64,000 nucleotides of DNA, taken from Phototrophicaceae bacterium. GTDB lineage: Bacteria; Chloroflexota; Anaerolineae; Aggregatilineales; Phototrophicaceae. Made by a program: the position numbers and the translations under genes. Within the stretch, counting starts at the first letter, position 1; the number at the start of each line of letters is the position of its first letter. The stretch is from the NCBI GenBank assembly GCA_965116425.1, contig OZ220689.1:2280134-2344133 (forward strand), in the 5' to 3' direction. Below, piece by piece: positions 6,998 to 47,260 of the stretch. The notes beneath the pieces are model-generated. The model did no database searches. It worked only from the letters and a program-made list of their open reading frames with translations, and had not been told where the DNA came from.

Positions 6998-7020
6998 GCT
7001 TGCTTCGGTAAGTGGCCTCT

Positions 7021-7611: not shown

Positions 7612-7620
7612 GGCGAGGCG

Positions 7621-8256
7621 CTAGAGCAACTTCATTGTACCCGAATCGCCCGCTGATATAAACTGTTTCAAAACTTGGAAGTCTTCCTCCAGCGTATCTC
7701 GCTGGCTTGCGTTGTAGAGCGCGGCGGCAGGGTGATAAAGCGGCACGACGGAAGCTCTGCCATACGCCGTGCGTACTTTGATGACCGTGCCGTGCAACTG
7801 GCTGATCTTCTGATTCGCTTGGAACGCGCCGAAGCGCCGCAATATGAACTCCATGGAGAAGCGGCCGAGGGTGGCAATCACCTTGGGCTGGATGATGCCA
7901 ATCTGCCGCTCTAGAAAGGGCGCGTACAAGTCGATTTCGGTCTTGAGCGGATCGCGATTATTGGGCGGACGGTCTTTGACGATGTTGGTCACGTAGACGT
8001 CCGGGCGCTCCAACTGGATGGACGCGAGCAATTCGTCCAAAATGCGCCCCGATGCGCCACAAAAAGGACGGCCGGTCTCCGCTTCATTCTTGCCCGGCGC
8101 TTCGCCGATGAACATGATGTCGGCGTAGTGGTCTCCCTGTCCGATCACCGGAAAATAGCCGTTGCGCTGGCGATAGTCGTAGAGCGGCGATTCCTTGAGA
8201 TTGACCAGCTCGTCTCGAATGGCGCGCAGCTGTTCGGTCCGGTCAGTCGACATCAT
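7621..8256 (-). CDS. Uracil-DNA glycosylase, family 4
   Basis: MFIGEAPGKNEAETGRPFCGASGRILDELL is the family-4 UDG signature. Start placed at the ATGATG at 8256-8251. Confidence 0.85.
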   Translation of the reverse strand: MMSTDRTEQLRAIRDELVNLKESPLYDYRQRNGYFPVIGQGDHYADIMFIGEAPGKNEAETGRPFCGASGRILDELLASIQLERPDVYVTNIVKDRPPNNRDPLKTEIDLYAPFLERQIGIIQPKVIATLGRFSMEFILRRFGAFQANQKISQLHGTVIKVRTAYGRASVVPLYHPAAALYNASQRDTLEEDFQVLKQFISAGDSGTMKLL

Positions 8257-8363
8257 TGACCTCGCTCTCTCCCCTTGAATTAGCCGTAGTCTAGCACATA
8301 GGCGGCGGCAATCGAAAGCAAATGCGCTCGCTGCCATATCCCTGCCAGCTTAGCCGGCAACGC

Positions 8364-9020
8364 TCATCTTAAGCTGTTGGCGCCATCGCAGAACAGGTCG
8401 CGGGCTTTGCGCAAGAGACGGCGCAAGGCAGCGTCGATTTCGTCGCCCATAGCGAGCGCCTCAGCGAAGCTCAGCCAGCGGAATTGCGTCGATTCGCCCG
8501 TGGCCGGCGAAAGCGCGCAAGGCTGGCTCGTCACCAGGACGTAGCGGAAATCCAAATGCAGGTGCTCGGGTTGGTCGCCACTCTGAGGGATGGCATGCAC
8601 GTCAACATCAATTGGCGCGACCGCGTCGATTGCGGGATGAAAGCGCAAATCGGGCAAGCCGGTTTCCTCGCGCGCCTCGCGCAAGGCTGCTTGCGCGATA
8701 TCGCTGTCGTCTTCCAGGTGGCCGCCAACCTGCAGCCAACGACCCAAGTGCTTGTGATGATGGAGCAGGGTCCGGCATGACTCCAGTTCGACGATGACTG
8801 CGGAGGCGGTGACATGCCCCAGCTCGCGGTTGCGGCTGAAAATATTGGCCTGCGCCGCGATCAGCGACTGGATGCGGCGAATGTCGCGCGCTTCCTTCTC
8901 GTCGGCGGGCTTGTGCGCAGCCAGCAGGCCCAGCGCCGCTGCCCGCGCCTGCGCCAGCGTTTCCCGACTGGATTGTGAGGACCTGTCGGCAGAGCTCGGC
9001 AAGCGGATGCGGCGTGACAT
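8364..9020 (-). CDS. NUDIX hydrolase
   Basis: Nudix box GGHLEDDSDIAQAALREAREETGL. Confidence 0.75.
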   Translation of the reverse strand: MSRRIRLPSSADRSSQSSRETLAQARAAALGLLAAHKPADEKEARDIRRIQSLIAAQANIFSRNRELGHVTASAVIVELESCRTLLHHHKHLGRWLQVGGHLEDDSDIAQAALREAREETGLPDLRFHPAIDAVAPIDVDVHAIPQSGDQPEHLHLDFRYVLVTSQPCALSPATGESTQFRWLSFAEALAMGDEIDAALRRLLRKARDLFCDGANSLR

Positions 9021-9038
9021 GGCGGTAAATTCGCTCGC

Positions 9039-10169
9039 TTAGTTGGCGCGCCCGTTCACGGCGGCAAGCAGCGCGGCGCCATAAGTCTTGCGGCGCCAGG
9101 GACCCAGGCCGCGAATGCCGTCGAGTTCGTCGGGCGAGGCAGGTTTGCGGCGGGCGATGGCCCAGAGCGCGTCTTTGCTGATGATGACATCCGATTCGAC
9201 GCCGCGCGCCTGAGCCGTATCGCGGCGCCAGCTGTGCAGCGCGCTGTAGCGATCGACGACCTGTTGCGGGATGGTCTCCTGCTCGGGTGCGACGTAATCG
9301 ACGCGGCTGGCCTTGCCATGTTGAATGGCCTGGATGAATTCGTCGCCGCTTTGGCGGATCAGCCAAGCCGGCAGGCCGCGCACATCGTAGAGCTGCTTGA
9401 CCGACCGCGGCGGCGACTTGACCAATTGCAGCAGCGCCTTGTTGGAGATAAGTTGGTGTGGTGGGCGATCGACCGATTGCGCCAATTCATCGCGCAGGAT
9501 GTAGAGTTCGCGCAAGATAGCGACCTGCCGCCCGTTGAGCGAGTTGGGGCGGCAGAGCGCCCAGAAACCTTCGGGATCAAATTCGCCCGATTTCAGCTCG
9601 AAGCGGGTGACATCGACGAAGTATTCGCGGGCTTCTTCGAGACGGCTCGCAGCTTGAAGTTCGGCGTAGAGGGCATCACGCAGGGCCAGCAAGTGGTGAG
9701 TATCCATTTGCGCGTAACGGCGAAAGCCTTCAGGCAGTGGTCGGCGCGCCCAATCGTCCGTCTGGTGCTTCTTGCTGTGCGCGACACCCAGCAGGTCTTC
9801 CAGCATATTGCCCAAGCCGATGCGCTGGTAACCGCAGACGCGCGCGGCCGCCATGGTATCGAAGATGTTGAGCACATCGAAGTCGAAGTCGCGCTTGAGG
9901 CAGATCAGGTCGAACTCGGCGGCGTGGAAGACCTTCTCGATGGCGGGATCGGCCAAGACCGGGGCGAGCGCGCTGACATCGGCGAGGGCGAGCGTGTCGA
10001 TGAGCAAGTCTTCGCGCGGCGTGGAGAATTGGATGAGGCAGGTGCGGCCGCGGTAGGCGTGCATGCTGTTGGACTCGGTATCGCAGGCGATGCGCGCTTC
10101 GGCGCTGAGGCGTACTACGGCGGCGTCAAGCGCGGCCTTGGTCTCAATATACGTAGCGGGGGCGAGCAT
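9039..10169 (-). CDS. rnd: Ribonuclease D-like 3'-5' exonuclease with HRDC domain
   Basis: DEDDy exonuclease motifs (IACDTESNS, HAAEFDL, YAQMDTHHLL) plus a C-terminal HRDC-like region. ATG at 10169 preferred over the listed TTG at 10187. Confidence 0.8.
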   Translation of the reverse strand: MLAPATYIETKAALDAAVVRLSAEARIACDTESNSMHAYRGRTCLIQFSTPREDLLIDTLALADVSALAPVLADPAIEKVFHAAEFDLICLKRDFDFDVLNIFDTMAAARVCGYQRIGLGNMLEDLLGVAHSKKHQTDDWARRPLPEGFRRYAQMDTHHLLALRDALYAELQAASRLEEAREYFVDVTRFELKSGEFDPEGFWALCRPNSLNGRQVAILRELYILRDELAQSVDRPPHQLISNKALLQLVKSPPRSVKQLYDVRGLPAWLIRQSGDEFIQAIQHGKASRVDYVAPEQETIPQQVVDRYSALHSWRRDTAQARGVESDVIISKDALWAIARRKPASPDELDGIRGLGPWRRKTYGAALLAAVNGRAN

Positions 10170-10177
10170 AGACCGTG

Positions 10178-11095
10178 CTACAACCAATTACGTCGGCGGA
10201 ACAGGTATAGCATCAGCAGGGCGATGATGAGCATGATGCCGGCTGTGATTATAAAGGCGTGGGGATTATCAGCAAAGGGAAGAACGATGTTCATGCCGTA
10301 GATGCTGGAGATGAGCGTCAGGGGCAGCATGATGACGGAGATGACGGTCAGGATGCGCATGACCTCGTTGATGCGGTAGCTGGCCAGGGTGTCGGCGGTA
10401 TCGGCGAAGCTGTTGATGATCTCGAAGTTCTCATCGGCGATGTCGCGCAGCTTGAATAGGTGGTCGACGATATCGCCGAAGTACTCCTCCATGTGCTCGT
10501 GCAAGATGGGGTGATCGCAGGCTTCAAGCTGCTGCACGATGGGGATCTGCCCGCGGACGATGCGGCGCAGCGAGATGATGTCGCGGCGCAGCAGGGCGAT
10601 CTCCTGGATGACGCGCCTGGCGTCCGACTCGAAAAGCGCGTCTTCAATGGCGTGGACGCGTCCATCGACCTTGTTCAGGATGGGGAAGACGTAGTCGACC
10701 AGCCGGTCAATGAGCGAGTGCAGGGCGTAGTTGGCGCCGCGCCCGAGCAAGCCATTGCGTTCGTTCTCGTCGCTCTGGCAAGCGTCGAAGGCAGCCGTCA
10801 GCGGTTTCAGGGCGCCATCATGCACGGTGACGACGTAGTCGGGCCCGAGGAAGAAATCGACTTCGCTGGAGCGGGAGAGCTCAACGCGGGCGTCCCAGAG
10901 CGGGAAGTGCATGACGAGAAAGAGGTAGGCGTCGTCCTGGTCGAGCTTGGGGCGTTCGATGCGGCTGCGGATGTCCTCGAGGTTGAGCGGGTGGAAGTGC
11001 GGGAAGCGGCGGTGCAGCGCCTCGACATCAGCGGCGGAGGGGTGCACGATGTCGATCCAGGTGAGCTTGTCGTGGGTGATGGCACGGGTGGTCAT
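10178..11095 (-). CDS. corA: Magnesium/cobalt transporter CorA
   Basis: YGMNIVLPF (GMN motif) followed by a C-terminal TM helix. ATG at 11095 gives MTTRAITHDKLTWIDI. Confidence 0.85.
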   Translation of the reverse strand: MTTRAITHDKLTWIDIVHPSAADVEALHRRFPHFHPLNLEDIRSRIERPKLDQDDAYLFLVMHFPLWDARVELSRSSEVDFFLGPDYVVTVHDGALKPLTAAFDACQSDENERNGLLGRGANYALHSLIDRLVDYVFPILNKVDGRVHAIEDALFESDARRVIQEIALLRRDIISLRRIVRGQIPIVQQLEACDHPILHEHMEEYFGDIVDHLFKLRDIADENFEIINSFADTADTLASYRINEVMRILTVISVIMLPLTLISSIYGMNIVLPFADNPHAFIITAGIMLIIALLMLYLFRRRNWL

Positions 11096-11272
11096 GGGGC
11101 TGATTCTACCCGCCTCAGTCGCCGCGTCGCAATGGGGGGCGCCCAGACTGAACCCTACAGATTTCGCCAGATCTTGGCGCCTGGCGCGGAAGCTGCAAGC
11201 ATCCAGTAATTGCGCGGCGGCGCTTGTCGGGTACACTGATTGGCAGAATCAGCCAGGGTCGGAGCGCGGCGG

Positions 11273-11746
11273 ATGACCAAGCGTACGGTTAAGCGACAAG
11301 AAGAGAGGCGGGAGTTGAAGCGGCGCAAGCAGTTGATGCTCGCCGCGGCGCTGGGATTGGCGGCGCTGGTCGCGGTGGGGCTGCTGGCTTACTTTGCCTT
11401 ATCAGACGATGGCAGCGCGGACGTTACGGTTGAGGTGCTGCCGGCCGAGCTGTCGGCGGATGGCCAGCAAGGCGAAGCGCTGTTCAAGGCGAATTGCCAG
11501 GCTTGCCACGGCCCGAACGCGTCGGGCACGAAGTTGGGTCCGCCGCTGATCCACGACATCTACAATCCCGGGCATCATTCGGACGACGCCTTTTATCTGG
11601 CGGCGGCGACCGGCGTGCGGCAGCATCACTGGCCCTATGGGGATATGCCGGCTCAGCCACAGGTGTCGCGTGAGGATGTGACGCTGATTATACGCTTTGT
11701 GCGTGAGCTGCAAGAGGCGAACGGTATTGTGCGTAAGGCGTACTAG
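11273..11746 (+). CDS. Membrane-anchored c-type cytochrome
   Basis: N-terminal TM segment, then the haem-binding motif CQACHG with a downstream Met region. Confidence 0.7.
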   Translation: MTKRTVKRQEERRELKRRKQLMLAAALGLAALVAVGLLAYFALSDDGSADVTVEVLPAELSADGQQGEALFKANCQACHGPNASGTKLGPPLIHDIYNPGHHSDDAFYLAAATGVRQHHWPYGDMPAQPQVSREDVTLIIRFVRELQEANGIVRKAY

Positions 11747-11839
11747 CGTGGCGGGGTCTTGGGCGCGGAGGCACGAAGGGCGTAAAGTGCCGAGGTTAGA
11801 TGGTTTCACACAAACTGTCATCTATGAGAATTGAAGTGA

Positions 11840-12790
11840 TTAGGTGTATAGTCCCGCATTAAGGTGGTATGGGTTTTGCTGAAATCGCTCCGGGGTTTCT
11901 CGCCAGCAATCACAGATGTATTCATAGGGGCTTCGCCCCTTCAGCGCCTTCAGCCTTTTGCCATAGTTGTAGGCTTGCAAGAACAACTCCAGGTGCTGAC
12001 GCAGTTCCTCATGACTTTGGTAAAAGTATCGATAGACCGTCTTCTCTTTGATACTCCGGTTCATGCGCTCGACTTGTCCGTTGGTCCAAGGATGATAAGG
12101 TTTGGTCAAGCGATGTTCAATCCCCTGCGCTTGGCATATTTTATCAAAGGCCAGCTTGCTTTTGCGCCCCGACCGCGCTTGATGGGTAAACTGAGTGCCA
12201 TTGTCGGTCAAGATGGTATGAATCTTGTAGGGTACGACTTCGATCAGCCGGCGCAGGAAGGCGCAAGCGTCCTCGCGTTTAGCGCTTTGACGCAGTTCAG
12301 CGAAGACAAACTTGGATGTCCGGTCAATGGCGACAAAGAGATAGAGCTTGCCCTGGTCAGTTCTGACTTGGCAGAAGTCCAGATGAAAGTAGCCGATGGG
12401 ATAGTTCTTGAAGCGCTTCTTCTTGGCCGGTTTGCTTTCCGATTCGGGCAGTCGGTTGACGCCATGCCGCTTGAAGCAGCGATGCAAGCTGGAGCGGGTC
12501 AGATGCGGTATGGTCTCTTGCAGGGCGTAGAGGCAGTCATCCAGGGGCAGCAGAGTCTTGATACGGAAGGCTAGGATGATATCTTCCTCTTGCTGGCTCA
12601 AGACGGTGGAGCGGGGATTCTTGGGACCCATCGGCCGGTCTTTGACGGAGGCGCGCTTCTTCCATTTCGCGACGGTTTTGGGGTTGATGCCGAAGCGCTT
12701 GGCCAGCTTGGCTATGCTCTCTTGACTATTTTGGATTTCTCGGCGGGTTGCCTCCGTCGTTGTGGCGCGCGGGTGTAGAACCTGTCCCAT
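11840..12790 (-). CDS. IS481 family transposase (HTH + rve integrase core)
   Basis: 316 aa. HTH region SIAKLAKRFGINPKTVAKWKKR, and DDE core (HLDFCQV..., TDNGTQFT, ...WTNGQVER). The ORF runs through the IR and stops at a TAA inside the flanking target duplication. Confidence 0.9.
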   Translation of the reverse strand: MGQVLHPRATTTEATRREIQNSQESIAKLAKRFGINPKTVAKWKKRASVKDRPMGPKNPRSTVLSQQEEDIILAFRIKTLLPLDDCLYALQETIPHLTRSSLHRCFKRHGVNRLPESESKPAKKKRFKNYPIGYFHLDFCQVRTDQGKLYLFVAIDRTSKFVFAELRQSAKREDACAFLRRLIEVVPYKIHTILTDNGTQFTHQARSGRKSKLAFDKICQAQGIEHRLTKPYHPWTNGQVERMNRSIKEKTVYRYFYQSHEELRQHLELFLQAYNYGKRLKALKGRSPYEYICDCWRETPERFQQNPYHLNAGLYT

Positions 12791-12843
12791 AGGGCTTCCT
12801 TTTGGCTATGTGAGATCATCCCATTATAATCTGAGACTATACA
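11845..12843 (-). mobile_element. IS481-family insertion sequence (999 bp)
   Basis: Imperfect terminal IRs: TGTATAGTCCCGCATTA (11845-) against the reverse complement of the right end, TGTATAGTCTCAGATTA. Flanked by the 6-bp direct repeat ATTAGG (11839-11844 and 12844-12849). Confidence 0.85.
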
Positions 12844-13490
12844 ATTAGGTCGCTTGGCGTTCGCGAATCACGCTATATTGCGGAAGACCTTCTTGGGGCT
12901 GAATCGAAAGCAGTGCCGCGGCGTCATCTTGGAAACTCCGCTCTTGGTAGCTTTTCCAGAGCGCGTTAAGAAAATCTCGCCGGTGCGACATTACAATTAC
13001 TTGAGCAAACTGGGCACTAACTTCCAGAATGCCCTCAATGACAGTTTGCTTCCGCACATCGTCAAGGCTGGTCGCTGGGTCGTCGAATACGAGTAGACTG
13101 CTATATGGGTTGACGCTCGCCCGCAGGCTTGACATAAAGAACGAAAATGCCAGCGCTCTGCGGTCGCCTTCGCTAAGCGCTTGACTAGGGCCAACAAGTC
13201 CTGAGTGGCTCTTGGTCGCGCGCATTGGTATTTTTTCGTCGAGCATACTTAGATAATAGCTTGCTTTCCATTTGCCCCCGCTTGACTGATGCGCAAGGTC
13301 TCGTATTTGGTATGCCACGCCAAATCTACGCAAATACGAATTCAGGTCTCGACTATAGTTTTGGAACACGTTCGAAAGTTCCTCTTTCAAAGCTCTTTGA
13401 AGAGACCTGACTTTGGCTTTCTCGGACTCCCGCAGCAACAATTCTTCGCTATATGAGTCGCAGAGCGCTGCGATTGCAGCAGAATACCTA

Positions 13491-14308
13491 GGTTCTGTTG
13501 ATATTTAGCATTGGCATTTTCATAAATGTGTAAAATAGTCTTATGACAAGCATAAGACTAGCTGACGAACAGTGGACGAAAATTCGGGATTTCCTGAAGC
13601 AAGACCCAAATGTTTATTTGGGTAACGAGGCCAATTGCCGCCTGTTCGTTGAAGCGGTGATATGGATATGTCGCAGCGGCGCGCAGTGGCGTTTGCTCCC
13701 AAGCGAATACGGCAAATGGAATTCGGTTTACAAACGCTATGCCGGCTGGTGCGAGAATGGCGTTTGGGAACGGATGATGGCAGCCTTCGCCGATGACCCG
13801 GATATGGAAAATGGGATAATCGACAGCACGATTGTACGTGCTCACCCCTGTGCCGCCGGCGCCCAAAAAAAGTGAGGAGCAAGCCTTGGGTCGCAGTCGC
13901 GGGGGTTTCAGCAGCAAGATACATGCCGCGGTTGATGCTTTGGGCAATCCCTTGCGCTTCCGCTTGAGTCCTGGCCAGGCTCACGACATCAATCAGGCCA
14001 AGGAGTTGGTGGAAGGCTTTGCCTTTCAGCGAGTTATCGCGGATCGGGGCTATGCCTCTCAAGAATTTGTGGACAGCTTGCTTGAAAGAGGCATAGAAGT
14101 GGTGATTCCACCGCATCCGCGTGCCAAAGAGCAGCGAGAATACGATAGATGGCTCTATCGCGAGCGGCATCTGGTGGAATGTTTCATCAACAAAATCAAA
14201 CATTTTCGCCGTGTCTTTTCTCGATTCGAGAAACTCGATTCATCTTATCTTGGTTTTCTGCACCTTGTCGGTACACTCATATGGTTACGATAGAATGTCA
14301 ACAGAACC
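13491..14308 (+). mobile_element. IS5-family (IS427/IS1031-type) insertion sequence (~818 bp)
   Basis: Terminal IRs GGTTCTGTTGATATTT and GGTTCTGTTGACATTC (reverse complement of the right end). TA duplication at 13489-90 and 14309-10, alternatively read as a CTAG target. Confidence 0.85.
13543..14293 (+). CDS. IS5 family transposase, two overlapping frames (orfA 13543..13875, orfB 13832..14293)
   Basis: orfA has ...WRLLPSEYGKWNSVYKRY.... orfB has LGRSRGGFSSKIHAAVD... and ADRGYAS.... The frames join by a +1 shift, equivalent to one fewer A, at the A7 run 13865-13871. Confidence 0.8.
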
Positions 14309-15721
14309 TAGACTTGGTGGCTTTGAGGTCTGTCAACTTCTTCTTCTGGGCATTAATATCTCTGGAATGCAACTCAGATTCAAGTTGGCGAATCACGACG
14401 TTTATGCGATCAATCTGCCGGTTGTAGATCTTTAAATTATGGACAATCCGCACCCATTTGTTGATCAGGCGCCGCGCCGTGTTGGGGAGCGGTACCTTCT
14501 CAAGCGGCAAAGCGCTCTTACTTTCTAACAGATCGCCGATTGCGGATTTTAGGCCGTCCAAGGTCTTTTGCATATTTCCGAAGTCAACTTCAATCAAATC
14601 CATTTCGGATAGCGGCGGACCTAGCTGATACAGCTGTCTCAAGTTTTGCAACGCGAAATCCCGATTTTGCTGCGTCGCATCGTCGATTCCAGAAAGCTGA
14701 CGCGGAAAATTCGCAATTCTGTTCTTGAGTCGTTTGTACTCGAGGCTAAACGCAGCCTTATAATGGTGGACTAGCACTGAGCCTTCGAGCGGCAGACCGC
14801 AAAACGGACAGGAATCGCTGTCGTCGGCGGCGTAATGGATGCCTTCTTCAATCCATGCGCGAAGTCTGGCGTTGGACTGAAACTTGGCGAGGTGCGAAGT
14901 TACGATTTCGACAGCGTCGTCCGCCATGTCGTCGATGGTAGTGTCTAGCAGCGACTCAAGATCATCGATAGGAAGTGTTGGAATTAGGAGTTCGTTCAAG
15001 GCAGACGCTCTCAAACGTTCAACGCTGTCGAGTTGCGAAACGATCTGAAGCTGGCGATTAAGTTTTGCTTGAATGTCCGCGCATGGTGGCAGTGCGAGAA
15101 ACCAGTCCAGATTCTCGTTATCGCTCAAGCCAAGATTCGGCTCAGGTATGACAGCGATGATACGAGACTTAAGTCGTCTAATCGTCCGGTTCCTGGATTC
15201 TATGGTGCGTTTGAGCTGTTGCTCTTCCTCAACAAGACTCACAGCGGAGCTGCCGACGATTATAGGAAAGAGTTTACGCTGGTGCTGAAGATCTACCTTT
15301 AGCCCAGAATAAATGTTTTCATCAATAAACCTTTCGTCAAAGATTGCCACCCTATCAAGGCCTTTGTTCCAGCGGTTAGAGCGAAACTCAAGGATGTGGC
15401 CGTTTGCCAGCTCCAAAGAGATTTCCTGGCTATTGATCCCGATCGTCTTTCGGGCCGCAAGACCACTATTTTCATCGGCAATCAACGACCTGAACATGTC
15501 TGTGAGCGTCGATTTGCCCAAACCATTTTCCGCGTAAATAAGGTTTAACCGTTTCAAGCGGATCGGGGGGCTCGGCCGAAAATCGAGAAATCTGCCTAGG
15601 CCACTGATTCCGTGAATTTTCGATATCATGGGCATGGACTCCACAACTGCGCAAGTCACGCAATTCACCGCGATTATACCAAACTAAGCGCCAGCAGGTA
15701 AATTGACCTTAGGTCTAGAAG

Positions 15722-15927
15722 CAGAGCAATCGCACCAGATTATTTTAACCACCGAGGACACCGAGATTTAACTCCTTTTCTGGCAAAAAGGAGGCAATGT
15801 AGGGGCGATTCTGTGAATCGCCCACGATATTCTCACTCTTTTCATGGGCGACACACAGTGTCGCCCCTACATCGTGGTAGATTTATGTGACATTCGGCAC
15901 ATAATTGGTTCTGGTGCGATTGCTCTG
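15722..15927. mobile_element. MITE (206 bp) with ISAs1-type terminal inverted repeats
   Basis: 18-bp perfect TIR CAGAGCAATCGCACCAGA / TCTGGTGCGATTGCTCTG. 10-bp target duplication GGTCTAGAAG (15712-15721 and 15928-15937). No coding capacity. Several internal hairpins. Confidence 0.85.
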
Positions 15928-16213
15928 GGTCTAGAAGTATGCTGCTCGCCATCCGAATTCCGAAAACTTTTTACTTGTATCCCCCCGTTTGATTGTGATA
16001 TATTTAACTATCGCAATTTCATGCGCTGGAATCGACTTGAAATCCTAACAGAATGCGTGGCAGTTTTGTCCTCGTGCTGCGGATTGAGACAGTTAAAATT
16101 CTTCTTGGTGAACCCGCTGGCTTTGAAATCCGAAGCGATAAGACCGAGTTTATTGGTGATGGCTTCGTTGACGCCCCCAGCCGTCCGTATTGTAGTCTGG
16201 CGCGGGTGATGGT

Positions 16214-17029
16214 TTAGGCTTGGTCTTTGGTTTTACGTGAGGCACAAAGCGGGGCAGCGCGGGCCGCCGACAGATCTGGATAGTGATGGCATAACAGGTC
16301 GTTGGCGTCGCCCTTCTCAGGTATGCCCGGTCCCGAGAACTGGCGATATTCCGCCTCGCCTGGCCAGCCCGCTTCGAGAAGCAGCGCCAGCAATTTTGCA
16401 GCGCCCTGCTCTCCGACCTTATCGTTGTCGGCATAGTAGACGAATTTCTTGACGCCGAGTTCATCCAGAAGGGCAGCGATGTCCTTGGGGATATTTGTAC
16501 TGCCGTAAATGCCGATGGCATTGCGTATACTCAGGGGGCGCAGCGACCAGACACCAAATTCACCTTCGACAATGTGGACTTCCCCGTGTGCGAGGGCGAT
16601 TGCGTGTATCAATTCAGCAAGTGTGCCGACATAGTGGAAAGGCTCATCTGTCTTCTCGCCTGAAAACCAGATTGACTTGCCGATCTTATTGCCATTGATG
16701 GTCGGTGGGTCTATGAAACGCCGGCGGCGTGCGCCGCGGCTGTCGTCTCTGCGCTTTTCGTGCCAGACGAGACAATATCTGCCGTAGTAGTCGTTGTATT
16801 CAATCCAGGCGCCGGCGGCCAACGCCGGTTTGATGATGCGACGAGCCGTGAGATAGGCTAACCATTCTGGATGATCTTGGATGCCGCATTTTCTCTGTCT
16901 GTTGTTCCGCCTGTAAGTCGGCAGCGCGCCTGGGTTTGTTAGCTGACGCAGGTAACCGGAACCGTCATCACGGATGAGTGCTGCCACGAGGTCACTTAAT
17001 AGGCGAGGATCAGCCTTTCCCTCGACCAA
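16214..17029 (-). CDS. Toprim domain protein (plasmid/phage primase-like), possibly 5'-truncated
   Basis: Toprim motifs HIVEGEFGVWSL, YYADNDKVGEQGAAK and KGDANDLL. Only a TTG start is available. The frame stays open 12 codons upstream with no start, and the N-terminus carries a second EG-type motif (ILLVEGKAD). Confidence 0.55.
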   Translation of the reverse strand: MVEGKADPRLLSDLVAALIRDDGSGYLRQLTNPGALPTYRRNNRQRKCGIQDHPEWLAYLTARRIIKPALAAGAWIEYNDYYGRYCLVWHEKRRDDSRGARRRRFIDPPTINGNKIGKSIWFSGEKTDEPFHYVGTLAELIHAIALAHGEVHIVEGEFGVWSLRPLSIRNAIGIYGSTNIPKDIAALLDELGVKKFVYYADNDKVGEQGAAKLLALLLEAGWPGEAEYRQFSGPGIPEKGDANDLLCHHYPDLSAARAAPLCASRKTKDQA

Positions 17030-17211
17030 AAGAATCGCGTCTGGCGGAAGGCGGTTGTTTGTCTTTCAGACACTGTTGCGGATGTCAGCTAGGGAAATGG
17101 GGTCAACATGGGGCTCCTGATAGCGTTGATAAGTCGTCGATGAGCCAGGAGTGTGGGGTAGTCCCCGTCCAGGTTAGCAGCTCCAGCTGCTGAACAGGGC
17201 GTTATTTCTAA

Positions 17212-17514
17212 CGCGCCACTCATTCCATTGTATCTACGGTTGACAATATCGATATCGTCGGTGTGGTGCCGGTGGCTTATGTGCCCAATACCGATCAAAA
17301 GGAATTCATGGCCGGGCTGCAGGAGAGCATCCCGCAGTATTTGACGCCGGTCCTGCGCCGCCGCGAAACGGTCATTGATGATGCCAGGCAATCGGGCTGC
17401 TCGATATTCAGCTACCGGCCGACCAGTTCATACCGCGCCAAAGCGCAACGCGAGAGCCGAGAAGACTATGTTTGCCTGGCAAAACATGTCATGCAACGTA
17501 TGAAGGAAGGATAA
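17212..17514 (+). pseudogene. ParA/MinD-type partition ATPase, C-terminal remnant
   Basis: Open frame ...VDNIDIVGVVPVAYVPNTDQKEF...LTPVLRRRETVIDDARQSGCSIFSYRP... resembles the last ~100 aa of ParA. There is no Walker A region upstream, only out-of-frame scraps. Confidence 0.5.
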
Positions 17515-17516
17515 CG

Positions 17517-17819
17517 ATGGCCAAGGACAAGCAGGGACAGGAACAGCTCAGCGCATTGTTTAGCCAGCGCTTCAAGGATCAGGATGCTGCGCCTGTAGAG
17601 GAGCGCGCAGTAGAAAAGCCAAGGCGTAAGCGGGGCAGGCCGCCGAAGGCAGTCCAGCGCAAAACGGTGTCGTTCTTTCTGATACCTAAGCTCGCCGAGC
17701 GCCTGGACGACGCGTACTATCAATGGAACGCGGGTTTATCCAAGGAAACACGCATCAGCCGCGCCGAGTTCCGCGAGATGGTGCTTGAAAAGGGCTTGAA
17801 ACAAATCCAAGATGAGTAG
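17517..17819 (+). CDS. Small ribbon-helix-helix (ParG/CopG-like) DNA-binding protein with AT-hook-like tail
   Basis: ATG at 17517 with GAAGGAAGG upstream. Basic tail PRRKRGRPPKA, then an RHH-like segment KTVSFFLIPKLAERLDDAYY. Starts 2 nt after the parA-remnant stop. Confidence 0.55.
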   Translation: MAKDKQGQEQLSALFSQRFKDQDAAPVEERAVEKPRRKRGRPPKAVQRKTVSFFLIPKLAERLDDAYYQWNAGLSKETRISRAEFREMVLEKGLKQIQDE

Positions 17820-17875
17820 GGTTGTCTACCTGCTGACCGCACATTGGCGGCCTTACTGCTGGCAAAGGACTTTCT

Positions 17876-20800
17876 GTGCCAAGAATCTTTGACAACATAT
17901 CGGATAAGCTGCTCACCGCGCTGCAGAACACGATGCAATCCGCTGACCAAGCGGATTTTTGTGTAGGCTATTTCAATCTCCGCGGCTGGCGACTGCTGCG
18001 AGCGGACATAGACCAGCTGGCAGGCGGTGATGAGGGCTACTGTCGCATACTGATCGGCATGAATCCCACGCCCCGCGATGAACTGCGTGAATATCTCAGC
18101 CTAAAAGCTCGCAAGCCGGTCGATCAGCAGCAAGTGATGCGGCGCAAACGCCAGATTGTCGAAGACTTCCGGCGCCAGCTGGCACTAGGCGCGCCTAACA
18201 ATGACGATGAGCAAGGACTTCGTGATCTCGTCGGGCAACTGCGCTCGGGCAAAGTGACGGTGAAGCTGTACTTGCGCGATTCGCTCCATGCCAAACTTTA
18301 TCTGATCCACAAGCAGGATTACAACACGCCCACCTTGGCCTTCCTCGGCAGCAGCAACCTGACCCTGGCCGGCCTATCCAAGCAAGGCGAGCTGAACACC
18401 GAAGTCAGCGACTACGACGCCTGTCAGAAGCTCAAGGCGTGGTTTGAAGAGCGCTGGGATGATCGCTGGTGCCTCGACATTACCGAAGACTTGATCGAGG
18501 TCATCGACAATAGCTGGGCGCGAAAAGATATGCTCACGCCTTACGAGCTATATCTGAAGATCGCCTATCACCTGGCGCAAGAAGCGCGCGCCGGGCTAAA
18601 TGAATTCAAGTTGCCGCGCGAATTTGCCGAGCAGCTGCTGGATTATCAGGCGGCCGCTGTACGCATAGCCGCCCACCATCTCAACACCCGCGACGGCGTT
18701 TTGCTCGGGGATGTGGTCGGGCTGGGCAAAACCCTGATGGCCACCGCCCTGGCAAGAATCTTCCAGGACGATCGCTCTTGGGACAGCCTGATTATCTGCC
18801 CGCCAAACCTTCAGCAGATGTGGCAGAAATATGTGGAAGATTATCGCCTCACGGCCAAAGTCGTCTCCCTTGGCATGGTGACCAGGGAATTGCCCGACCT
18901 GCGCCGTTACCGCATCGTGATCGTTGACGAAAGCCACAACCTGCGCAATCGCGAGACGCAGCGCTATCGAGCTGTTCATGACTACATCAGCACCAACGAA
19001 AGCCGCTGCATCTTGCTATCGGCGACGCCCTACAATAAGAATTACCTGGACCTGTCGGCGCAGCTGCGTTTATTCATCGGCGAAGAAGATGTGCTGGGCA
19101 TTCGACCGGAGCAATACCTGAAAAAGGTCGGCGAGGCACAATTCAAATACCAGTTCCCGACAGCTCATTCCCGTTCCATCGTTGCCTTTGAGAAAAGCGA
19201 ACACACTGACGACTGGCGCGATCTGATGCGTCTGTATCTGGTGCGCCGTACGCGCAGCTTCATCGAGAACAATTACGCTGAAGACGACCCTGTTACCGGG
19301 CGTAAATTCATGCAACTGCAGAGTGGAAAGCGCTTCTATTTTCCCCGCCGCGTCCCGAAAACCATTCCGCTAAAGGCAAGCCCGCAGTACGACCGGCTCT
19401 ATTCCGACCAAGTAGTTGAGCTGGTTAACGACCTGAGCCTGCCACGGTACGGCTTGGGTCAATATGTGGACGGCAAGGCAGCCGAGACAGCGAAGGCGGG
19501 CGAACAGCAGCAAATCGAGAACCTGTCCCGCGCTGGCAAACGCCTGATGGGCTTCTGCCGCACAAACCTCTTTAAGCGCCTGGAAAGCAGTGGTGCGTCC
19601 TTCCTAAAATCGGTGGACCGGCACATCGCGCGCAATTACGTCTTTCTCCACGCCATAGAGAACGACCTGGAGCTGCCTATCGGCTCGCTGGATGCCCATA
19701 TTCTGGATCCCGATACCCAAGACGAAGATAGCGATTCGATCTATGTCGCTTTGAGCTTGGAAAATGAGGGGAATTCGGATGATGTAACGGACGTGGAAGA
19801 TCTTGACGAGAATTATACCCAGCGCGCCCGCACGGCTTATGCTTTGTTCAGCGGCCGCTATAGACGGCGTTTCAAGTGGCTGCGCGCGTCCTTATTCGCC
19901 GATGCCTTGCGGAAGGAACTGCAAGAAGACATTGATCGCTTGACGGCGGTGATTGAGCTCTGCGGCGATTGGGATGTCGTCGAAGATACCAAGCTGGCTG
20001 CTTTACACGGACTAATCAGCCGCGATCATGCGGACGAAAAGGTGCTGGTCTTTTCCCAGTTCGCCGATACGATTCGCTACCTGCAGAGCGAACTGACTCG
20101 CCTGGGCACGGCGGAACTGGAAGCAGCCACCGGGCAACACGATAATCCGACCGCTTTGGCGCGGCGCTTCAGCCCTGTTAGCAACGAACTGAAGCGAAAA
20201 CCGGCGGATGAAATCCGGGTTTTGTTATCCACCGATGTGCTCAGTGAAGGGCAGAACCTGCAGGACAGCGCCATCGTCATCAATTACGATTTGCCTTGGG
20301 CGATCATCCGACTGTCACAACGGGCGGGCCGTGTCGACCGCATTGGGCAGAAAGCTGAGGAAATCCGCTGTTACTCATTCATGCCGGCGGATGGCGTGGA
20401 AGAGATCATTCGTCTACGCTCCCGGGTGCGGCAACGGCTGGAAGAGAACGGCGAAGTCGTTGGCTCCGATGAGCAATTCTTTGAAGATGACAGAACCGCC
20501 CAACAGCTGCGCGATTTATACACCGAGAAGTCTGGCATTCTCGATCTGGAAGCCGATAGCGAAGTTGACCTGTCGTCCTATGCCTGGCAAGAATGGGCCA
20601 ACGCCATCAAGGACAATCCGCAGCTGAAGAAAAAGATCGAGGAGTTGCCCGATGTGGTCTATTCGTCACGGCATTATCTGGGCTCTGTCGACCGCCCCCA
20701 AGGCGTGATCACTTATGTGAAATCGAGCGATGACACCGATGCGCTTGTGTGGCTGGACCAAGAAGCGGAAATCGTCACTGAGTCGCAATTGGCGATCCTG

Positions 20801-21235
20801 CGCGCCGCCAAATGCGAGCCGGACACGCCGACGCAGGCGCGACATCCGCGGCACCACGATCTGGTGCTCGCGGGAGTGCGGAAGACACAGGAAGCGGATT
20901 ATATCGCCGCCACCGGCGGGCAATTGGGACGCCCCAACAGCACGCGCCGCCAGACCTATGAGCGACTAAAAGGCTATGTCCAGGATCTGCCGCTGCTTCG
21001 CAATAGGGAGGGGCTGGAAGCGGCCATTGACGACATCTATCGCCATCCCCTGTTAGAATCGGCGCGCGACAAGCTGAACCGACAAATCCGCGCCGAAATC
21101 CAGGACGAGGACCTGGCGGAGCTGGTGATCGGCTTGTGGCAAGATGAGCGCCTGAGCCGAAAACAAGAAGGCGATGAGGAGCGGGAAGCGCGCATCCTCT
21201 GTTCACTGGGCTTATTCGACTTATCCGAGGAGTAG
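17876..21235 (+). CDS. PLD-family nuclease domain fused to SNF2-family helicase (1119 aa)
   Basis: Single HKD motif LHAKLYLIH...GSSNLT (His codon 18287-18289). SF2/SNF2 motifs DVVGLGKT, VIVDESHNLRN, LLSATPYNK, LLSTDVLSEGQNLQD and QRAGRVDRIGQ. About 280 aa of C-terminus is unassigned. Confidence 0.85.
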   Translation: MPRIFDNISDKLLTALQNTMQSADQADFCVGYFNLRGWRLLRADIDQLAGGDEGYCRILIGMNPTPRDELREYLSLKARKPVDQQQVMRRKRQIVEDFRRQLALGAPNNDDEQGLRDLVGQLRSGKVTVKLYLRDSLHAKLYLIHKQDYNTPTLAFLGSSNLTLAGLSKQGELNTEVSDYDACQKLKAWFEERWDDRWCLDITEDLIEVIDNSWARKDMLTPYELYLKIAYHLAQEARAGLNEFKLPREFAEQLLDYQAAAVRIAAHHLNTRDGVLLGDVVGLGKTLMATALARIFQDDRSWDSLIICPPNLQQMWQKYVEDYRLTAKVVSLGMVTRELPDLRRYRIVIVDESHNLRNRETQRYRAVHDYISTNESRCILLSATPYNKNYLDLSAQLRLFIGEEDVLGIRPEQYLKKVGEAQFKYQFPTAHSRSIVAFEKSEHTDDWRDLMRLYLVRRTRSFIENNYAEDDPVTGRKFMQLQSGKRFYFPRRVPKTIPLKASPQYDRLYSDQVVELVNDLSLPRYGLGQYVDGKAAETAKAGEQQQIENLSRAGKRLMGFCRTNLFKRLESSGASFLKSVDRHIARNYVFLHAIENDLELPIGSLDAHILDPDTQDEDSDSIYVALSLENEGNSDDVTDVEDLDENYTQRARTAYALFSGRYRRRFKWLRASLFADALRKELQEDIDRLTAVIELCGDWDVVEDTKLAALHGLISRDHADEKVLVFSQFADTIRYLQSELTRLGTAELEAATGQHDNPTALARRFSPVSNELKRKPADEIRVLLSTDVLSEGQNLQDSAIVINYDLPWAIIRLSQRAGRVDRIGQKAEEIRCYSFMPADGVEEIIRLRSRVRQRLEENGEVVGSDEQFFEDDRTAQQLRDLYTEKSGILDLEADSEVDLSSYAWQEWANAIKDNPQLKKKIEELPDVVYSSRHYLGSVDRPQGVITYVKSSDDTDALVWLDQEAEIVTESQLAILRAAKCEPDTPTQARHPRHHDLVLAGVRKTQEADYIAATGGQLGRPNSTRRQTYERLKGYVQDLPLLRNREGLEAAIDDIYRHPLLESARDKLNRQIRAEIQDEDLAELVIGLWQDERLSRKQEGDEEREARILCSLGLFDLSEE

Positions 21236-21241
21236 AACAAA

Positions 21242-24200
21242 ATGGCGCTGAACCGCACTAGAGCGCGAGAATATATGCAAGCATTCGAATTCGAAAACCT
21301 TCTAATAGAAATTGGGTGGGAGAGCGTTCCGCCAGCGCGGCCAGTGAATATTGGGAACACCGGCTACCAGTATCGCCTCATTTCGGAGACGGTATTTGAG
21401 GTGTTTCCAGTAAATCCCCGCTCCAACGCGCTGCCGGACGCCAGAACGCTGAAAAATATTCACAAGAACATCGAGAAAATATCGTTCGAAAACTTGATTG
21501 TCTTCCTCGATAATGACAAGATTAGAACACAAAGCATCTGGTATTGGGTCAAACGAGAGGGTAATAAAAAAACACCCAAGAAAACATTACTATTTTAAGG
21601 AACAGCCCGGCGACCTTTTCCTGAGCAAAATTGCAGGCATGGTCATCGAGATGGGCGACCGACGCTCCGACGGCAGCCTACCCATCACAGAACGCACCAA
21701 GCGATTTGCTGATTCCTTTGATATTCTGCCCGTCACCAAGCGCTTTTACAGCGAATTCAGCGGGCTGCGCGTCGACTTCATCAACCTGATTCAAGGCATC
21801 CCGCGCGAAGCCGACCGCAACTGGTACGCCTCGGTGCTGCTCAACCGGCTGATGTTCATCTACTTCTTGCAGAAGCGCGATTTCATCCAGGGTAACAGTA
21901 ATTACCTCGACGACAAGTTGGAGGAAAGCCGAAGACGCGGACGCGACCGCTACTACCAAGAATTCCTCGATGCGCTGTTTTTTGAGGGCTTTGCCAAGCC
22001 GGAACACGAACGCAGCGCCGAGGCAAAACGCTTGCTCGGGCCCATTCCCTACCTGAACGGTGGCTTATTCATCCGCCACCGCTTGGAACTCGATAACGTC
22101 GCCATCCAGATCCCCGACCGCGCCTTCGAGAATGTCCTGGACCTTTTCGGTCGCTATTCCTGGCATTTGGACGATACGCCGGGCGCGCGCGACAACGAGA
22201 TCAACCCCGATGTGCTGGGTTATATCTTCGAGAAATACATCAACCAGAAAGCCTTCGGCGCTTATTACACGCGGGGGGAGATCACCGAATACCTCTGCCA
22301 GCGCAGCATCCACAGCGTGATTCTGGAGAAGGTCAACCAGCATAGCGTCCGCCAATTCAGCGACTTGAGCGATGTGCTGATGCGGCTGGATGCCGAGCTA
22401 TGCCGCACGCTGCTGTTCACTGTCTTGCCCAAGCTGTCGATCCTCGACCCCGCCTGCGGCTCGGGCGCGTTCCTGGTGGCGGCGATGAATAACCTGCTCA
22501 ATATCTATGGCGCGGTCTTTGGGGCGATTGACCGGCTGAACGACAGCAACCTGCGGCGGCAGGCGGAAAAAATCCGGCGGGAGCATCCCTCCATCAATTA
22601 TTACATCCGCAAGCAGATTATCGTGAAAAACCTCTACGGCGTCGACATCATGGATGAAGCCACCGAGATCGCCAAACTGCGCCTCTTCCTGGCGCTGGTC
22701 AGCGTGGCGCAGTCGCTCGATGACCTGGAACCCCTGCCCAATATCGACTTCAATATCATGGCCGGCAACTCGCTGATTGGCTTGCTGAGCGTCGATGACA
22801 ATCGCTTTGATGAGGGCGCGCGCACGCAAGACATGCTCCAGCGCGTCAAAGCCCAGGATTACCAGCGCGCGCTAGCGGAGAAGAATCGCCTGATCAAGCT
22901 CTACCGCAAAACCGACAGCGCCTATTCCGATCACCTGCAAGACCTGCGCGGACGCATCAACGCGCAGCGCCACGACGCCCAGGGCGTTCTCAACGAGATC
23001 CTGCTGGACGACTTCCGCGCCTTAAAAATCCAGTACGAGGGTGCGCAGCTCAAAGGACGCGCGAAGAAACGCCCACTGCAGACAACCGACATAGAAGCCC
23101 TGAATCCCTTCCACTGGGGTTACGAGTTCGACGAAATCATCGAGGAGCACGGCGGCTTTGATGTCATCATCACCAACCCACCCTGGGAAGTCTTCAAGCC
23201 GCAAGACGAAGAATTCTTCGCCCAATATGACGACAGCATGCGCCAGAAAAGGGCGAACCGAGTCGACAAGAGGCGAATCAAGGCGCAACTGCTGGAAGAC
23301 GCCGATATAAGGCGCGAATATCTGCAATATCAAAGCGACTACCGCCATGTCAGCGCCTATTATCGCAGCGCCCCGCAATACCAGAATCAGATTTCGCGCG
23401 TGAACGGCCGCAAGCAAGGCAGCGACATCAACCTCTACAAGCTCTTCACCGAGCAGTGCTTTCGCCTGCTGCGGGAGAAGACGGCTATTAAGCCCGGCGG
23501 GGCTTGTGGCATCGTCATCCCATCGGGCATATACAGCGATTTGGGCACAAAACAATTGCGGCAAATGCTCTTTGAAAAAACCAAAGTCACGGGTTTGTTC
23601 GGTTTCGAGAACCGCAAAGCGATCTTTGAGGGCGTACATAAGAGCTTCAAATTCGTGGTGCTGTCAATCGAAAAAGGCGGGCAAACCCTCAGTTTCCCGG
23701 CCGCTTTCATGCGCCACGATGTCAAAGAGCTAGAGCAGTTTCCGGCTGAAGACAGCGTCAAGGTCAGCGTCGATCTCATCAAACGCTCGTCGCCTTCGTC
23801 GCTGTCGGTGACCGAATTCAAGGGCGCGCTGGATGTGGACATCGTCGAGAAGATGCTGCGCTTCCCGCTTTTGGGCGAAGAATTGCCCGACAAGTGGAAT
23901 GTGAAGCTAACACGCGAATTCGACATGACAAACGACAGCGACCTCTTCCATGACGCGCCGGGAGCGGGCAGACTGCCGCTTTACGAGGGCAAGATGATCT
24001 GGCAGTTCCAGCATGGCTACGCCGCGCCGCGCTACTGGATTGACGAGGCGGCTGGTCGGAAGCGTGTGCTGGGCAGGAAGGGTGAGGATGTCGGGCAGCG
24101 GCTTGATTATCAGATGTATCGGCTAGGTTTTCGGGATGTGGCTAGCTCGACCAATGAGCGTACGATGATTATGACGGTCCTTCCGCCACTAAATTTTGCA

Positions 24201-24677
24201 GGCAATACTGTACCTACTGCCAAAGCGATACACCACAATTCAGATATTCCTGATAACGTGTCGCAGCTCATTGTGTGCACTATTTCCAATAGTTACCTTG
24301 TAGATTATATTGCACGGCAAAAAGTTTCAGCGCACTTAAATTTTTTCTACGTTAGGCAACTCCCCATCCCACGCCTGATGCCGGGCGACCGCTTCTTCGA
24401 CTCTATCGCCCAGCGCGCCGCCCAGCTTATCTGCACGGCGCCGGAATATGACGACCTAGCGGCTGAGGTCGGGCTGGGCAGCCACCGCAATGGCGTGACC
24501 GATCCGGCCGGGCGGGCGAAGCTGCGCGCCGAGCTAGATGGCATCATCGCGCATATCTACGGTCTGACAGAAGCCGAATTCGCCCACGTGCTGGGCACAT
24601 TCCCGCTGGTGGACGCAGGGGTCAAGGCGGCGGCGATGGAGGCGTATCGGGATGTCGAGCGCGGCGCGGTGATGTGA
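21242..24677 (+). CDS. Eco57I/type-IIG-like N6-adenine DNA methyltransferase (~1144 aa), interrupted by a frameshift in an A7 tract
   Basis: ORFs 21242..21598 and 21498..24677 join as ...VKREGNKK-HPRKHYYFKEQPG... if the A7 run 21566-21572 were A6. Motif I is LDPACGSGAFLV and motif IV is NPPW (23175-23186). YYTRGEIT and GNSLIG are typical of this family. ATG lies 6 nt after the helicase stop, with GAGGAG as RBS. Confidence 0.8.
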
Positions 24678-24705
24678 GCGTCCGCTCGCGGGCAGGGCAA
24701 TATCA

Positions 24706-25118
24706 CAGAGCAATCGCACCAGATTATTTTAACCACCGAGGACACCGAGATTTGCCTCCTTTTCTGGCAAAAAGGAGGCAATGTAGGGGCGATTCTGTGA
24801 ATCGCCCACGATATTCTCACTCTTTTCATGGGCGACACACAGTGTCGCCCCTACAAGGCTTGATTGGTATTAGCGATGAATTCGCCGGAATTTTACCCCA
24901 CCCCCCGGCCCCCTCCCCGACGAGTCAGGGAGGGGGAGCTAAATTCTGCGAATATCATGGTTTTTTGATACTTTGTGTAGGTATTGACCCGGTATTCCAT
25001 ACGAAAACAGTTATACTACGGTTGGTTTTCTGTGTTCTTTGCAATACAAATCAAGCCTTACATCGTGGTAGATTTATGTGACATTCGGCACATAATTGGT
25101 TCTGGTGCGATTGCTCTG
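24706..25118. mobile_element. Second MITE copy (same family as 15722-15927) carrying a nested insertion; no target duplication
   Basis: Same 18-bp TIRs and near-identical arms as the first copy. The flanks (GCAATATCA and CGTAGATTA) do not match each other. Confidence 0.8.
24856..25058. mobile_element. Nested ~203-bp MITE-like insertion inside the second MITE
   Basis: It interrupts ...GTCGCCCCTACA|TCGTGG..., which is continuous in the first copy. Own IRs are AGGCTTGATTGGTATT and AGGCTTGATTTGTATT (reverse complement). TACA is duplicated at 24852-24855 and 25059-25062. Confidence 0.7.
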
Positions 25119-25289
25119 CGTAGATTAGGCGCTGCAATCGCTGGCTAGCGGAGTCAGGACGCCCTTTGCGCCAGCCCGATCTGACGTGGTTTCGTGGCTC
25201 TCAAACAGCTGAAGGCCTTGTCATTCGGCTAGTTCTAGTCGCTCAACATTGTGCTCGCGAGCAGCAGTCCCTTTAGCGGAATGGAATAT

Positions 25290-47233: not shown

Positions 47234-47260
47234 AAGCGCCGGTTTGAGACCGGCACGGTT

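Follow-up and report, generated by a model that had tools for sequence, protein, structure and literature searches.

A probable patchwork in a Phototrophicaceae genome: a defence ATPase broken by an insertion sequence, plasmid-type scraps and a predicted helicase-nuclease and methyltransferase pair

The block at positions 11839-25118 of the window (the whole stretch of 64,000 nucleotides of a Phototrophicaceae genome, Chloroflexota, that was analyzed; contig OZ220689.1) lies between a cytochrome c gene and a sugar ABC transporter operon. It comprises a broken ATPase gene, remnants of plasmid-type genes, a helicase gene and a methyltransferase gene, interspersed with insertion sequences (ISs) and miniature inverted-repeat transposable elements (MITEs). 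A sequence-only reading had taken it for a single 13.3-kb accessory island, bounded by an IS and a MITE, with a helicase-methylase-ATPase grouping of the Hma type. We favor another account, with a probability of roughly three in four: this 13-kb block would be pieced together from no fewer than three unrelated parts, each acquired independently, and the resident IS elements and MITEs of the genome would have remodeled it afterwards. The three pieces are an IS-broken defence ATPase in a variable slot, scraps of plasmid-type maintenance genes, and a self-contained pair of genes for a helicase-nuclease and a methyltransferase. The apparent helicase-methylase-ATPase trio dissolves on comparison with relatives; in genomes rich in IS elements and MITEs, the closeness of genes says little about whether they belong to one system.

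Open reading frame (ORF) listing and scans with hidden Markov models (HMMs) recovered every gene that the sequence-only reading had listed, each where it had been placed, and its hand counts of guanine-plus-cytosine (GC) content proved exact (38.3% for 15301-15360 and 63.3% for 10501-10560). The accessory nature of these genes is supported too, as is the foreign composition of the left part. Composition is nonetheless uneven across the block. Against a genome average of 58.8% GC, the ATPase gene with 49.7% falls in the first percentile of 2-kb genome windows, while the helicase (56.7%) and methyltransferase (55.6%) genes, in the 15th-22nd percentile, are only mildly low, which places the ATPase 6-7 points below the pair. 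A single acquisition of the whole block is contradicted by this non-uniform GC content (49.7% for the ATPase versus 56-57% for the helicase-methyltransferase cassette) and by its flanks, as positions 11746 and 25290, which would be neighbors in an empty site, are adjacent in no relative examined. Neither do an IS and a MITE delimit one island: the IS481-family copy was inserted later, inside the block. Scans of the block for tRNAs and Rfam families returned nothing except chance miRNA-like matches on a MITE hairpin.

Comparison within the genus accounts for the left part. The closest relative (G002) is 91-94% identical to and collinear with window positions 6354-11778. Past 11778, it carries a minus-strand gene for an OLD/GajA-like ATPase of 619 amino acids, next a 114-bp counterpart of window 15956-16069, followed by the Rieske/cytochrome b/cytochrome c operon. 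The layout is the same in G001; both genomes share the stretch from CorA to cytochrome c up to 11778 and the 114-123-bp leader of the Rieske operon, and carry different genes between them, in each case other genes than the ATPase of the window. Across six genomes of the genus, at least four different defence contents occur between the conserved flanks: an OLD/GajA-like ATPase (G002), an OLD/GajA-like ATPase with type IIG-like genes (G010 and G019), a GajB-like UvrD helicase (G001), a type I M+S fusion (G004) and two different PDC-S06 ATPases (the present genome, G000). Positions 11779-15946 are thus predicted to fill a defence hot spot framed by conserved sequence, with the broken ATPase among its occupants. 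The arrangement resembles the defence-island hot spots of enterobacteria, Vibrio and Pseudomonas in its conserved core flanks (cytochrome c and the Rieske leader) and varying defence content, but it occurs in a Chloroflexota genus (Phototrophicaceae) and is duplicated within one genome. This cytochrome c/Rieske hot spot can be mined for new defence genes.

In the second copy, the cytochrome c segment 11154-11742 is repeated at window-equivalent positions 76616-77204 (97.5% identical) and the leader 15947-16069 at 79766-79888, where it precedes the Rieske operon. This copy (L014 12616-15888, window-equivalent 76616-79888) consists of cytochrome c, an ATPase, the leader and then the Rieske/cytochrome b/cytochrome c operon. 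Its PDC-S06/AAA_13 ATPase is intact (780 amino acids; L014:13324-15666, minus strand), and the broken ATPase of the window is 33-35% identical to this paralogue. The ORF pieces of the broken gene (12845-13441 and 14298-15668, minus strand) both have PDC-S06 as their best PADLOC family; the PDC-S06 profile, PDLC04895, is matched over positions 1-461 by the N-terminal piece and over positions 491-652 by the C-terminal piece. When the flanks are joined across the IS5-family IS, they form one open frame of 667 codons, hence this insertion is the sole lesion and the ATPase gene is predicted to be knocked out by it. The ATPase resembles PDC-S06 and PrrC/RloC-type AAA_13 ATPases in that it forms a unit of one gene, sits in a defence hot spot and has PDLC04895 as the best HMM for both pieces; it differs by its interruption and by its length (667 amino acids versus 784 model positions). 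PDC-S06 is itself a candidate system only, with no established mechanism. In the complete PADLOC hit lists, neither piece matches HmaC. PADLOC assigns the ATPase to candidate PDC-S06 and the helicase to 'HKD+Snf2'; the proposed Hma-type grouping is not supported.

The IS elements and MITEs are native high-copy repeats and not island borders. The IS481-family element (transposase ORF 11840-12790, minus strand) has TGTATAGTC termini and a 6-bp target duplication, ATTAGG, at 11839-11844 and 12844-12849. This duplication contains the stop codon of the ATPase gene, so the element landed inside the block without truncating that gene. The genome holds 12 full copies and one interrupted copy at 99.5% identity or more. 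The IS5-family element lies in a CTAG target within the ATPase gene, agrees with its family in its two frames, its size of ~0.8 kb and its CTAG/TNA target, and is present as 16 full-length copies and two internally deleted ones. The 206-bp MITE occurs in 32 full-length copies, MITE1 included, at 99% identity or more, and the 200-bp MITE nested within the composite MITE2 has 7 close copies. A 1.2-kb IS elsewhere in the window (52279-53513) shares its terminal 16 bp with the MITE ends, is flanked by a 9-bp duplication, TGTGCCTGC, and is not at this site in G002; it is likely the autonomous partner of the MITE family. On the side of the sugar operon, synteny with G002 resumes exactly at window position 25119, with no MITE at the joint, and the G002 equivalent of this position lies 2 Mb from its cytochrome c locus, beside another ABC transporter. 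MITE2 (24706-25118) is not flanked by a target duplication and ends, on its right, at this very synteny break. The cassette was therefore probably brought next to the sugar operon by recombination between two copies of the MITE, with MITE2 as the resulting joint. The leader fragment 15947-16069 is fused to the Toprim region at 16070.

Table 1. Features of the block and its left flank, in window coordinates.
Feature	Positions	Strand	Evidence
Cytochrome c gene (11240-11746) and surroundings, left conserved flank of the slot	11154-11778	+	Pfam Cytochrom_C; synteny with G002 ends at 11778
IS481-family IS, 999 bp	11845-12843	-	NCBIfam transpos_IS481, 298.6 bits (cut-off 224 bits), 5e-89
AAA_13/PDC-S06-type ABC ATPase, 3' part	12845-13491	-	Pfam AAA_13; PADLOC PDC-S06, 1.4e-19
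IS5-family IS (IS427/IS1031-like), two ORFs joined at an A-run	13488-14311	+	DUF4096 and DDE_Tnp_1; inverted repeats 13488-13505 and 14294-14311
AAA_13/PDC-S06-type ATPase, 5' part	14312-15668	-	AAA_13, 8.9e-24; PDC-S06, 4.2e-38
MITE1, 206 bp	15722-15927	.	Perfect 10-bp target duplication GGTCTAGAAG; ends match the IS at 52279-53513
Copy of the conserved Rieske/cytochrome b operon leader, right flank of the slot, severed from the operon	15947-16069	+	91-96% identity to the sequence preceding the Rieske gene in G001 and G002
Toprim-domain (primase-like) gene, 271 amino acids	16214-17029	-	Pfam Toprim_2, 7.7e-6
Conserved non-coding element, ~200 nt, just upstream of the Toprim gene	17038-17232	.	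73% identity to L029 2845-3040
parA 3' fragment, last ~87 codons	17248-17509	+	tblastn with the full-length ParA encoded in L029: 41% identity over its residues 180-266, E 2e-21
Ribbon-helix-helix (RHH)-like small gene, 115 amino acids, in partition-adaptor position	17472-17819	+	Strand-helix motifs in common with the 92-amino-acid gene after ParA in L029, by eye
Two-gene cassette, extent as a mobile unit	17862-24701	+	Nucleotide homology to G008, L029, L031, L032 and L035
HKD(PLD)-SNF2 helicase-nuclease, 1119 amino acids, intact	17876-21235	+	Pfam PLDc_2, SNF2-rel_dom and Helicase_C; PADLOC 'HKD+Snf2', 2.4e-48
BrxX/PglX-like (type IIG-like) N6-adenine methyltransferase, ~1145 codons, frame-broken	21242-24677	+	Eco57I, MmeI_Mtase, DUF7814
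MITE2, composite second copy with a 200-bp MITE nested at 24856-25055	24706-25118	.	No target duplication

The helicase and methyltransferase genes appear as a discrete, self-contained two-gene unit of ~6.8 kb. Homology to related loci starts at 17858-17877 (at 17862 in G008, 14 nt before the helicase start codon) and ends at 24701 in G008, 5 nt before MITE2, and at 24651-24677 in L029, L031, L032 and L035. In G008, a Phototrophicaceae metagenome-assembled genome (MAG) of the Chloroflexota, the same pair (81-85% nucleotide identity) sits between NUDIX/LysE genes and an aminotransferase gene, and these flanks map elsewhere in the present genome. The pair is also found in L035, L029, L031, L032 and L036, each time in a different context. 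The helicase retains its motifs (H138-x-K140 with GSSN, Walker A GLGKT, DESH), and its AlphaFold2 model, with a predicted local distance difference test (pLDDT) score of 77.9, is most similar in fold to RapA and other SNF2 motors; a sequence search of the PDB returned generic SNF2 matches only. In the methyltransferase, the motifs DPACGSG and NPPW are intact and the PADLOC profile REase_MTase_IIG spans both pieces (1.4e-98). An AlphaFold model of an intact ortholog (pLDDT 75.8) has BrxX/PglX of BREX as its best full-length match, followed by CamA, DrdV, BpuSI, MmeI and LlaGI. No nuclease domain was found in the methyltransferase by Pfam or by PDB sequence search, the latter being empty, and its N-terminal 300 residues match only DUF7814 and MmeI_hel.

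The pair is widespread. A protein search with the helicase gave at least 8000 candidates, all at an E value of 1e-20 or better. The neighborhood was surveyed in 80 species-level loci of more than 15 phyla. A methyltransferase homologue lies downstream on the same strand in 74 of the 80, and four of the other six loci end within 2.4 kb of the helicase. Where intactness could be judged, the methyltransferase is a single ORF of at least 1000 amino acids in 55 of 64 loci. An AAA_13 ATPase and a Toprim gene are each present in none of the 80 loci and ParA in one, and a DUF499 query had no match in them by tblastn. The only recurrent neighbor is a DprA-like protein (PF02481, SLOG-type) of ~215 amino acids, encoded on the same strand 0-4.5 kb downstream of the methyltransferase in 24 of the 80 loci and absent from the window; there is no recurrent large neighbor family. 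Mean column identity amounts to 64% for the helicases and 39% for the methyltransferases, and the greater variability of the latter is as expected of the specificity-bearing subunit.

Between the slot and the cassette, the parA fragment, the RHH-like ORF and the Toprim gene may together represent a partition/replication module, of which the parA gene is truncated. L029, a Chloroflexota MAG, has the order with full genes: a Rep-like gene, a copy of the 200-nt element that lies upstream of the Toprim gene in the window, a full ParA, an RHH gene, the helicase and the methyltransferase. Pfam gave no ParA or RHH match among the small ORFs of 17089-17950, and the parA fragment was seen only through tblastn. 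Homologues of the Toprim protein with 57-61% identity occur in G002 (truncated) and G015, and the RHH-like ORF is 77% identical to a remnant in G002. The 200-nt element is single-copy in the genome; its L029 counterpart lies upstream of the Rep-like HTH_36 gene, and both Chloroflexota copies precede parA. It has no Rfam match and no further copies in the collected loci, and its RNA fold is not significantly stable (z-scores -1.3 and -0.75); a role as origin or as regulatory region of the carrier element is possible. G002 preserves a decayed Toprim'-RHH-helicase' junction (L034 8736-9622; G002:C1 ~3624735-3625621), which breaks off ~40 codons into the helicase. The common lineage thus once had the cassette, and G002 has lost it. 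Positions 16070-17861 would be what is left of the maintenance genes of a plasmid- or ICE-like element (ICE: integrative and conjugative element), with 17862-24701 as its cargo. The decayed plasmid or ICE that had been proposed as carrier of the whole block is therefore retained for 16070-24701, in view of the primase, parA and RHH scraps, and dropped for the ATPase part. The pair is on 77 PLSDB plasmids, retrieved with the helicase; neither the DNA of 16070-17900 (blastn) nor the Toprim protein (tblastn) has a match in PLSDB.

Homologues of the pair lie on cyanobacterial plasmids. The helicase encoded by SGL_RS01585 on pSYSX of Synechocystis PCC 6803 is 47.5% identical to that of the window, and the methyltransferase of the same plasmid is 34-40% identical over its N-terminal and catalytic parts. 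By size and position, this methyltransferase matches Slr6050 (M.Ssp6803IV), to which the asymmetric site GAm6AGGC (m6A: N6-methyladenine) was tentatively assigned and whose knock-out never segregated (PMC6105098); the neighboring helicase is not mentioned in that paper. The helicase gene and the gene of the methyltransferase (1100 amino acids) on pSYSX are separated by two others, one small and hypothetical and the second for a vapC toxin (47182-47815; L122 10487-11120). On plasmid pANACY.05 of Anabaena cylindrica, the pair is followed by genes annotated as ATP-binding protein and DUF4276. Such genes indicate that further defence-type genes nest in or beside the cassette.

What the pair does can be proposed from its domain families. 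With a recognition region of its own in the C-terminal part, the methyltransferase would bind a short asymmetric site and methylate one adenine at N6, and the HKD-SNF2 protein would translocate on DNA with ATP and cut unmodified DNA. Its single HKD motif implies that a dimer is needed for cleavage. It would find its target either via the methyltransferase, in the manner of Type III and Type ISP enzymes, or alone, as the Synechocystis result suggests. We tentatively regard the pair, at slightly less than even odds, as a self-sufficient and very widespread two-gene restriction system, i.e., a minimal BREX-related system or 'split Type ISP' enzyme without DUF499, of which the on/off state would be set through the methyltransferase gene. 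If so, the neighboring helicase-nuclease would explain why the slr6050 knock-out does not segregate. With members in many phyla and on cyanobacterial plasmids, the cassette is a candidate for the smallest restriction system of the BREX-related or Type ISP-like kind; the homologue of Synechocystis PCC 6803, with its undeletable methyltransferase, is a ready experimental handle.

The proposed switch would correspond to lesions in the methyltransferase genes of the genus. All three cassettes found there have a broken methyltransferase gene beside an intact helicase gene, with the lesion at a different site in each. In the window, one extra A in an A7 run (21566-21572), near codon 109, puts the first 109 codons in another frame than the rest. 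In G008, the frame is lost near codon 866 at a G15 tract (L025 15670-15684; G008:C1 ~3207669-3207683), where the window reads GAAAAAGGCGGGCAAACC; this tract is either a classic phase-variation tract or a long-read homopolymer error. The third lesion, in the genome of L035, is an indel near codon 510. Outside the genus, the methyltransferase is short or split in eight of 63 judged loci. The cassette of the present genome is, judging from its frame, probably switched off or decaying.

Several points weigh against this picture. The restriction or defence role of the pair is a prediction for every one of its members. The A7 frameshift is read from the assembly alone. A frame-switch signature accompanies 4 of the 259 homopolymer runs of at least seven in the genome, compared to 1.2% of random sites, so homopolymer errors are not widespread, which does not prove the A7 site itself. 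The genomes of G008 and L035 are apparently long-read MAG assemblies, and some of the three breaks in the genus may be assembly errors of that kind. The essentiality of the Synechocystis methyltransferase fits a nuclease that acts without its methyltransferase, and sits uneasily with three broken copies beside intact helicases. A functional link with ParA/RHH, which precedes the cassette in two lineages, is possible. Finally, the two cytochrome c-slot-leader modules are direct repeats (95-97.5% identical) that bracket ~60.5 kb, and we infer rather than observe how this segment arose. Most likely, the slot would have been duplicated through recombination of incoming or rearranged DNA that bore another version of the locus. 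The bracketed DNA is, however, for the most part 88-97% identical to the chromosomal region 3.54-3.65 Mb of G002, and it may thus reflect an internal rearrangement rather than an import.

The same segment is at the heart of the alternative that survives best. It holds that everything from 11779 to window-equivalent 79756 (~68 kb) is one foreign element, brought in by homologous recombination at the cytochrome c/Rieske locus, with the block as its left end. We consider this unlikely, albeit the least unlikely of the alternatives. The bracketing repeats would fit such an element, as would the single copy of the locus in G002, which spans 2.1 kb there versus ~68 kb here, and the maintenance-gene remnants at the inner left end. 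Yet the match to the G002 chromosome includes the Toprim'-RHH-helicase' remnant, which points to DNA that the lineage already possessed. In the parts examined, integrase and conjugation genes were not seen, and MITE2 marks a recombination event of its own within the stretch. A comparison with the context of L035, made to test for circular permutation of these 60 kb, yielded one 460-bp HNH-like match only and was uninformative.

Independent pieces are also preferable to a four-gene unit in which a ParA-like ATPase and an RHH protein would act as regulator or loader of the helicase-nuclease and the methyltransferase, and which would be dead here since parA is truncated. All four genes are co-oriented with short gaps, and two ParA/RHH pairs that are only 41% identical precede the same cassette (in the window and in L029/L030). 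This unit is nevertheless improbable: ParA lies upstream in just one of the 80 species-level loci, the pair occurs without it in G008, L031, L032, L036, pSYSX and the Anabaena plasmid, and the start of homology 14 nt before the helicase start codon implies that the cassette recombines without the upstream genes.

The weakest alternative is the one put forward originally, i.e., one island with a three-gene, DUF499-centered Hma-type system that came in on a plasmid or ICE and decayed afterwards. In Hma, a DUF499 AAA+ ATPase is combined with a methyltransferase and with a SNF2 helicase that bears a PD-(D/E)xK nuclease at its C terminus (PMC8565338, PMC11232893). Although all three activities lie within 12 kb, plasmid-type scraps are present and the helicase matches the HmaA profile weakly (4e-20; residues 548-826 in its C-lobe only), we give this alternative hardly any credence, because the ATPase is AAA_13 by Pfam and PDC-S06 by PADLOC rather than DUF499 and has no HmaC match; is encoded on the other strand, 2.2 kb off, in a slot that varies independently, with a MITE, the core fragment 15947-16069 and the Toprim gene in between; differs in GC content from the pair by the 6-7 points given above; and is absent from all 80 helicase loci, while the nuclease domain is an N-terminal HKD domain and not a C-terminal PD-(D/E)xK (PMC11232893), and the only DUF499 (PF04465) match of the genome is 1.14 Mb from the pair. 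That DUF499 gene (G000:C1:3436023-3439397, 1125 amino acids) has a SNF2-type helicase homologue ~7 kb away, and the region is probably a genuine Hma or BREX-related system elsewhere in the chromosome.

The pair belongs to none of Hma, Type-2 BR, DISARM and BREX. Among known systems, DISARM class 1, with its SNF2 helicase DrmD, methylase DrmMI and PLD protein DrmC, has a PLD nuclease in common with the pair, and there is HMM similarity to DrmD (7e-32) and DrmMI (1.5e-25). However, no DrmA or DrmB (DUF1998) was found among the 13 major and five small ORFs scanned (the small ones at 15844-17819), the NCBIfam score for DrmD is 133 versus a cut-off of 610, and the PLD domain is here fused to the helicase. 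The methyltransferase resembles BREX PglX/BrxX, MmeI, DrdV and BpuSI in fold, length and the gamma-class motifs DPACGSG and NPPW, and the asymmetric 6-bp m6A site tentatively assigned to the Synechocystis homologue (PMC6105098) is in keeping with BREX and type IIG/IIL enzymes. Of BREX, the PglX-like fold is nevertheless the only common element, since PglZ, BrxC and BrxL are absent from the block. Unlike type IIG/IIL enzymes, the methyltransferase has no recognizable nuclease and no MmeI_N match, and the nuclease resides on the separate helicase protein. With Type ISP (LlaGI, LlaBIII) and Type III restriction-modification systems, the pair has the combination of a nuclease, a superfamily 2 translocase, an N6-adenine methyltransferase and target recognition in common. 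LlaGI is among the fold matches, and the homopolymer tracts (A7 here, G15 in G008) recall the phase-variable mod genes of Type III. The differences are that these functions are spread over two polypeptides, that the nuclease is of the HKD instead of the Mrr or PD-(D/E)xK type, that the motor is SNF2 and not a Type ISP or Res helicase, and that activity is predicted here. The closest likeness is to the BREX-related (BR) systems, a class in which Hma has been reclassified as Type-1 and of which Type-2 combines an HKD-SNF2 helicase with DUF499 and DUF3780 (PMC12839542). The pair agrees with Type-2 BR in the fusion of an HKD endonuclease, at the N terminus, to a RapA/BrxHII-like SNF2 helicase, in an N6-adenine methyltransferase of the BrxX/PglX kind and in the proposed restriction-modification-like logic, but DUF499 is absent from the locus as well as from the 80 related loci (tblastn). 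DUF3780 (PF12635) has no match in the genome, a weak test given that control genomes are equally silent. The most apt description of the pair is that of a relative of Type-2 BR systems with two genes, which would operate in the manner of a split Type ISP or Type III enzyme.

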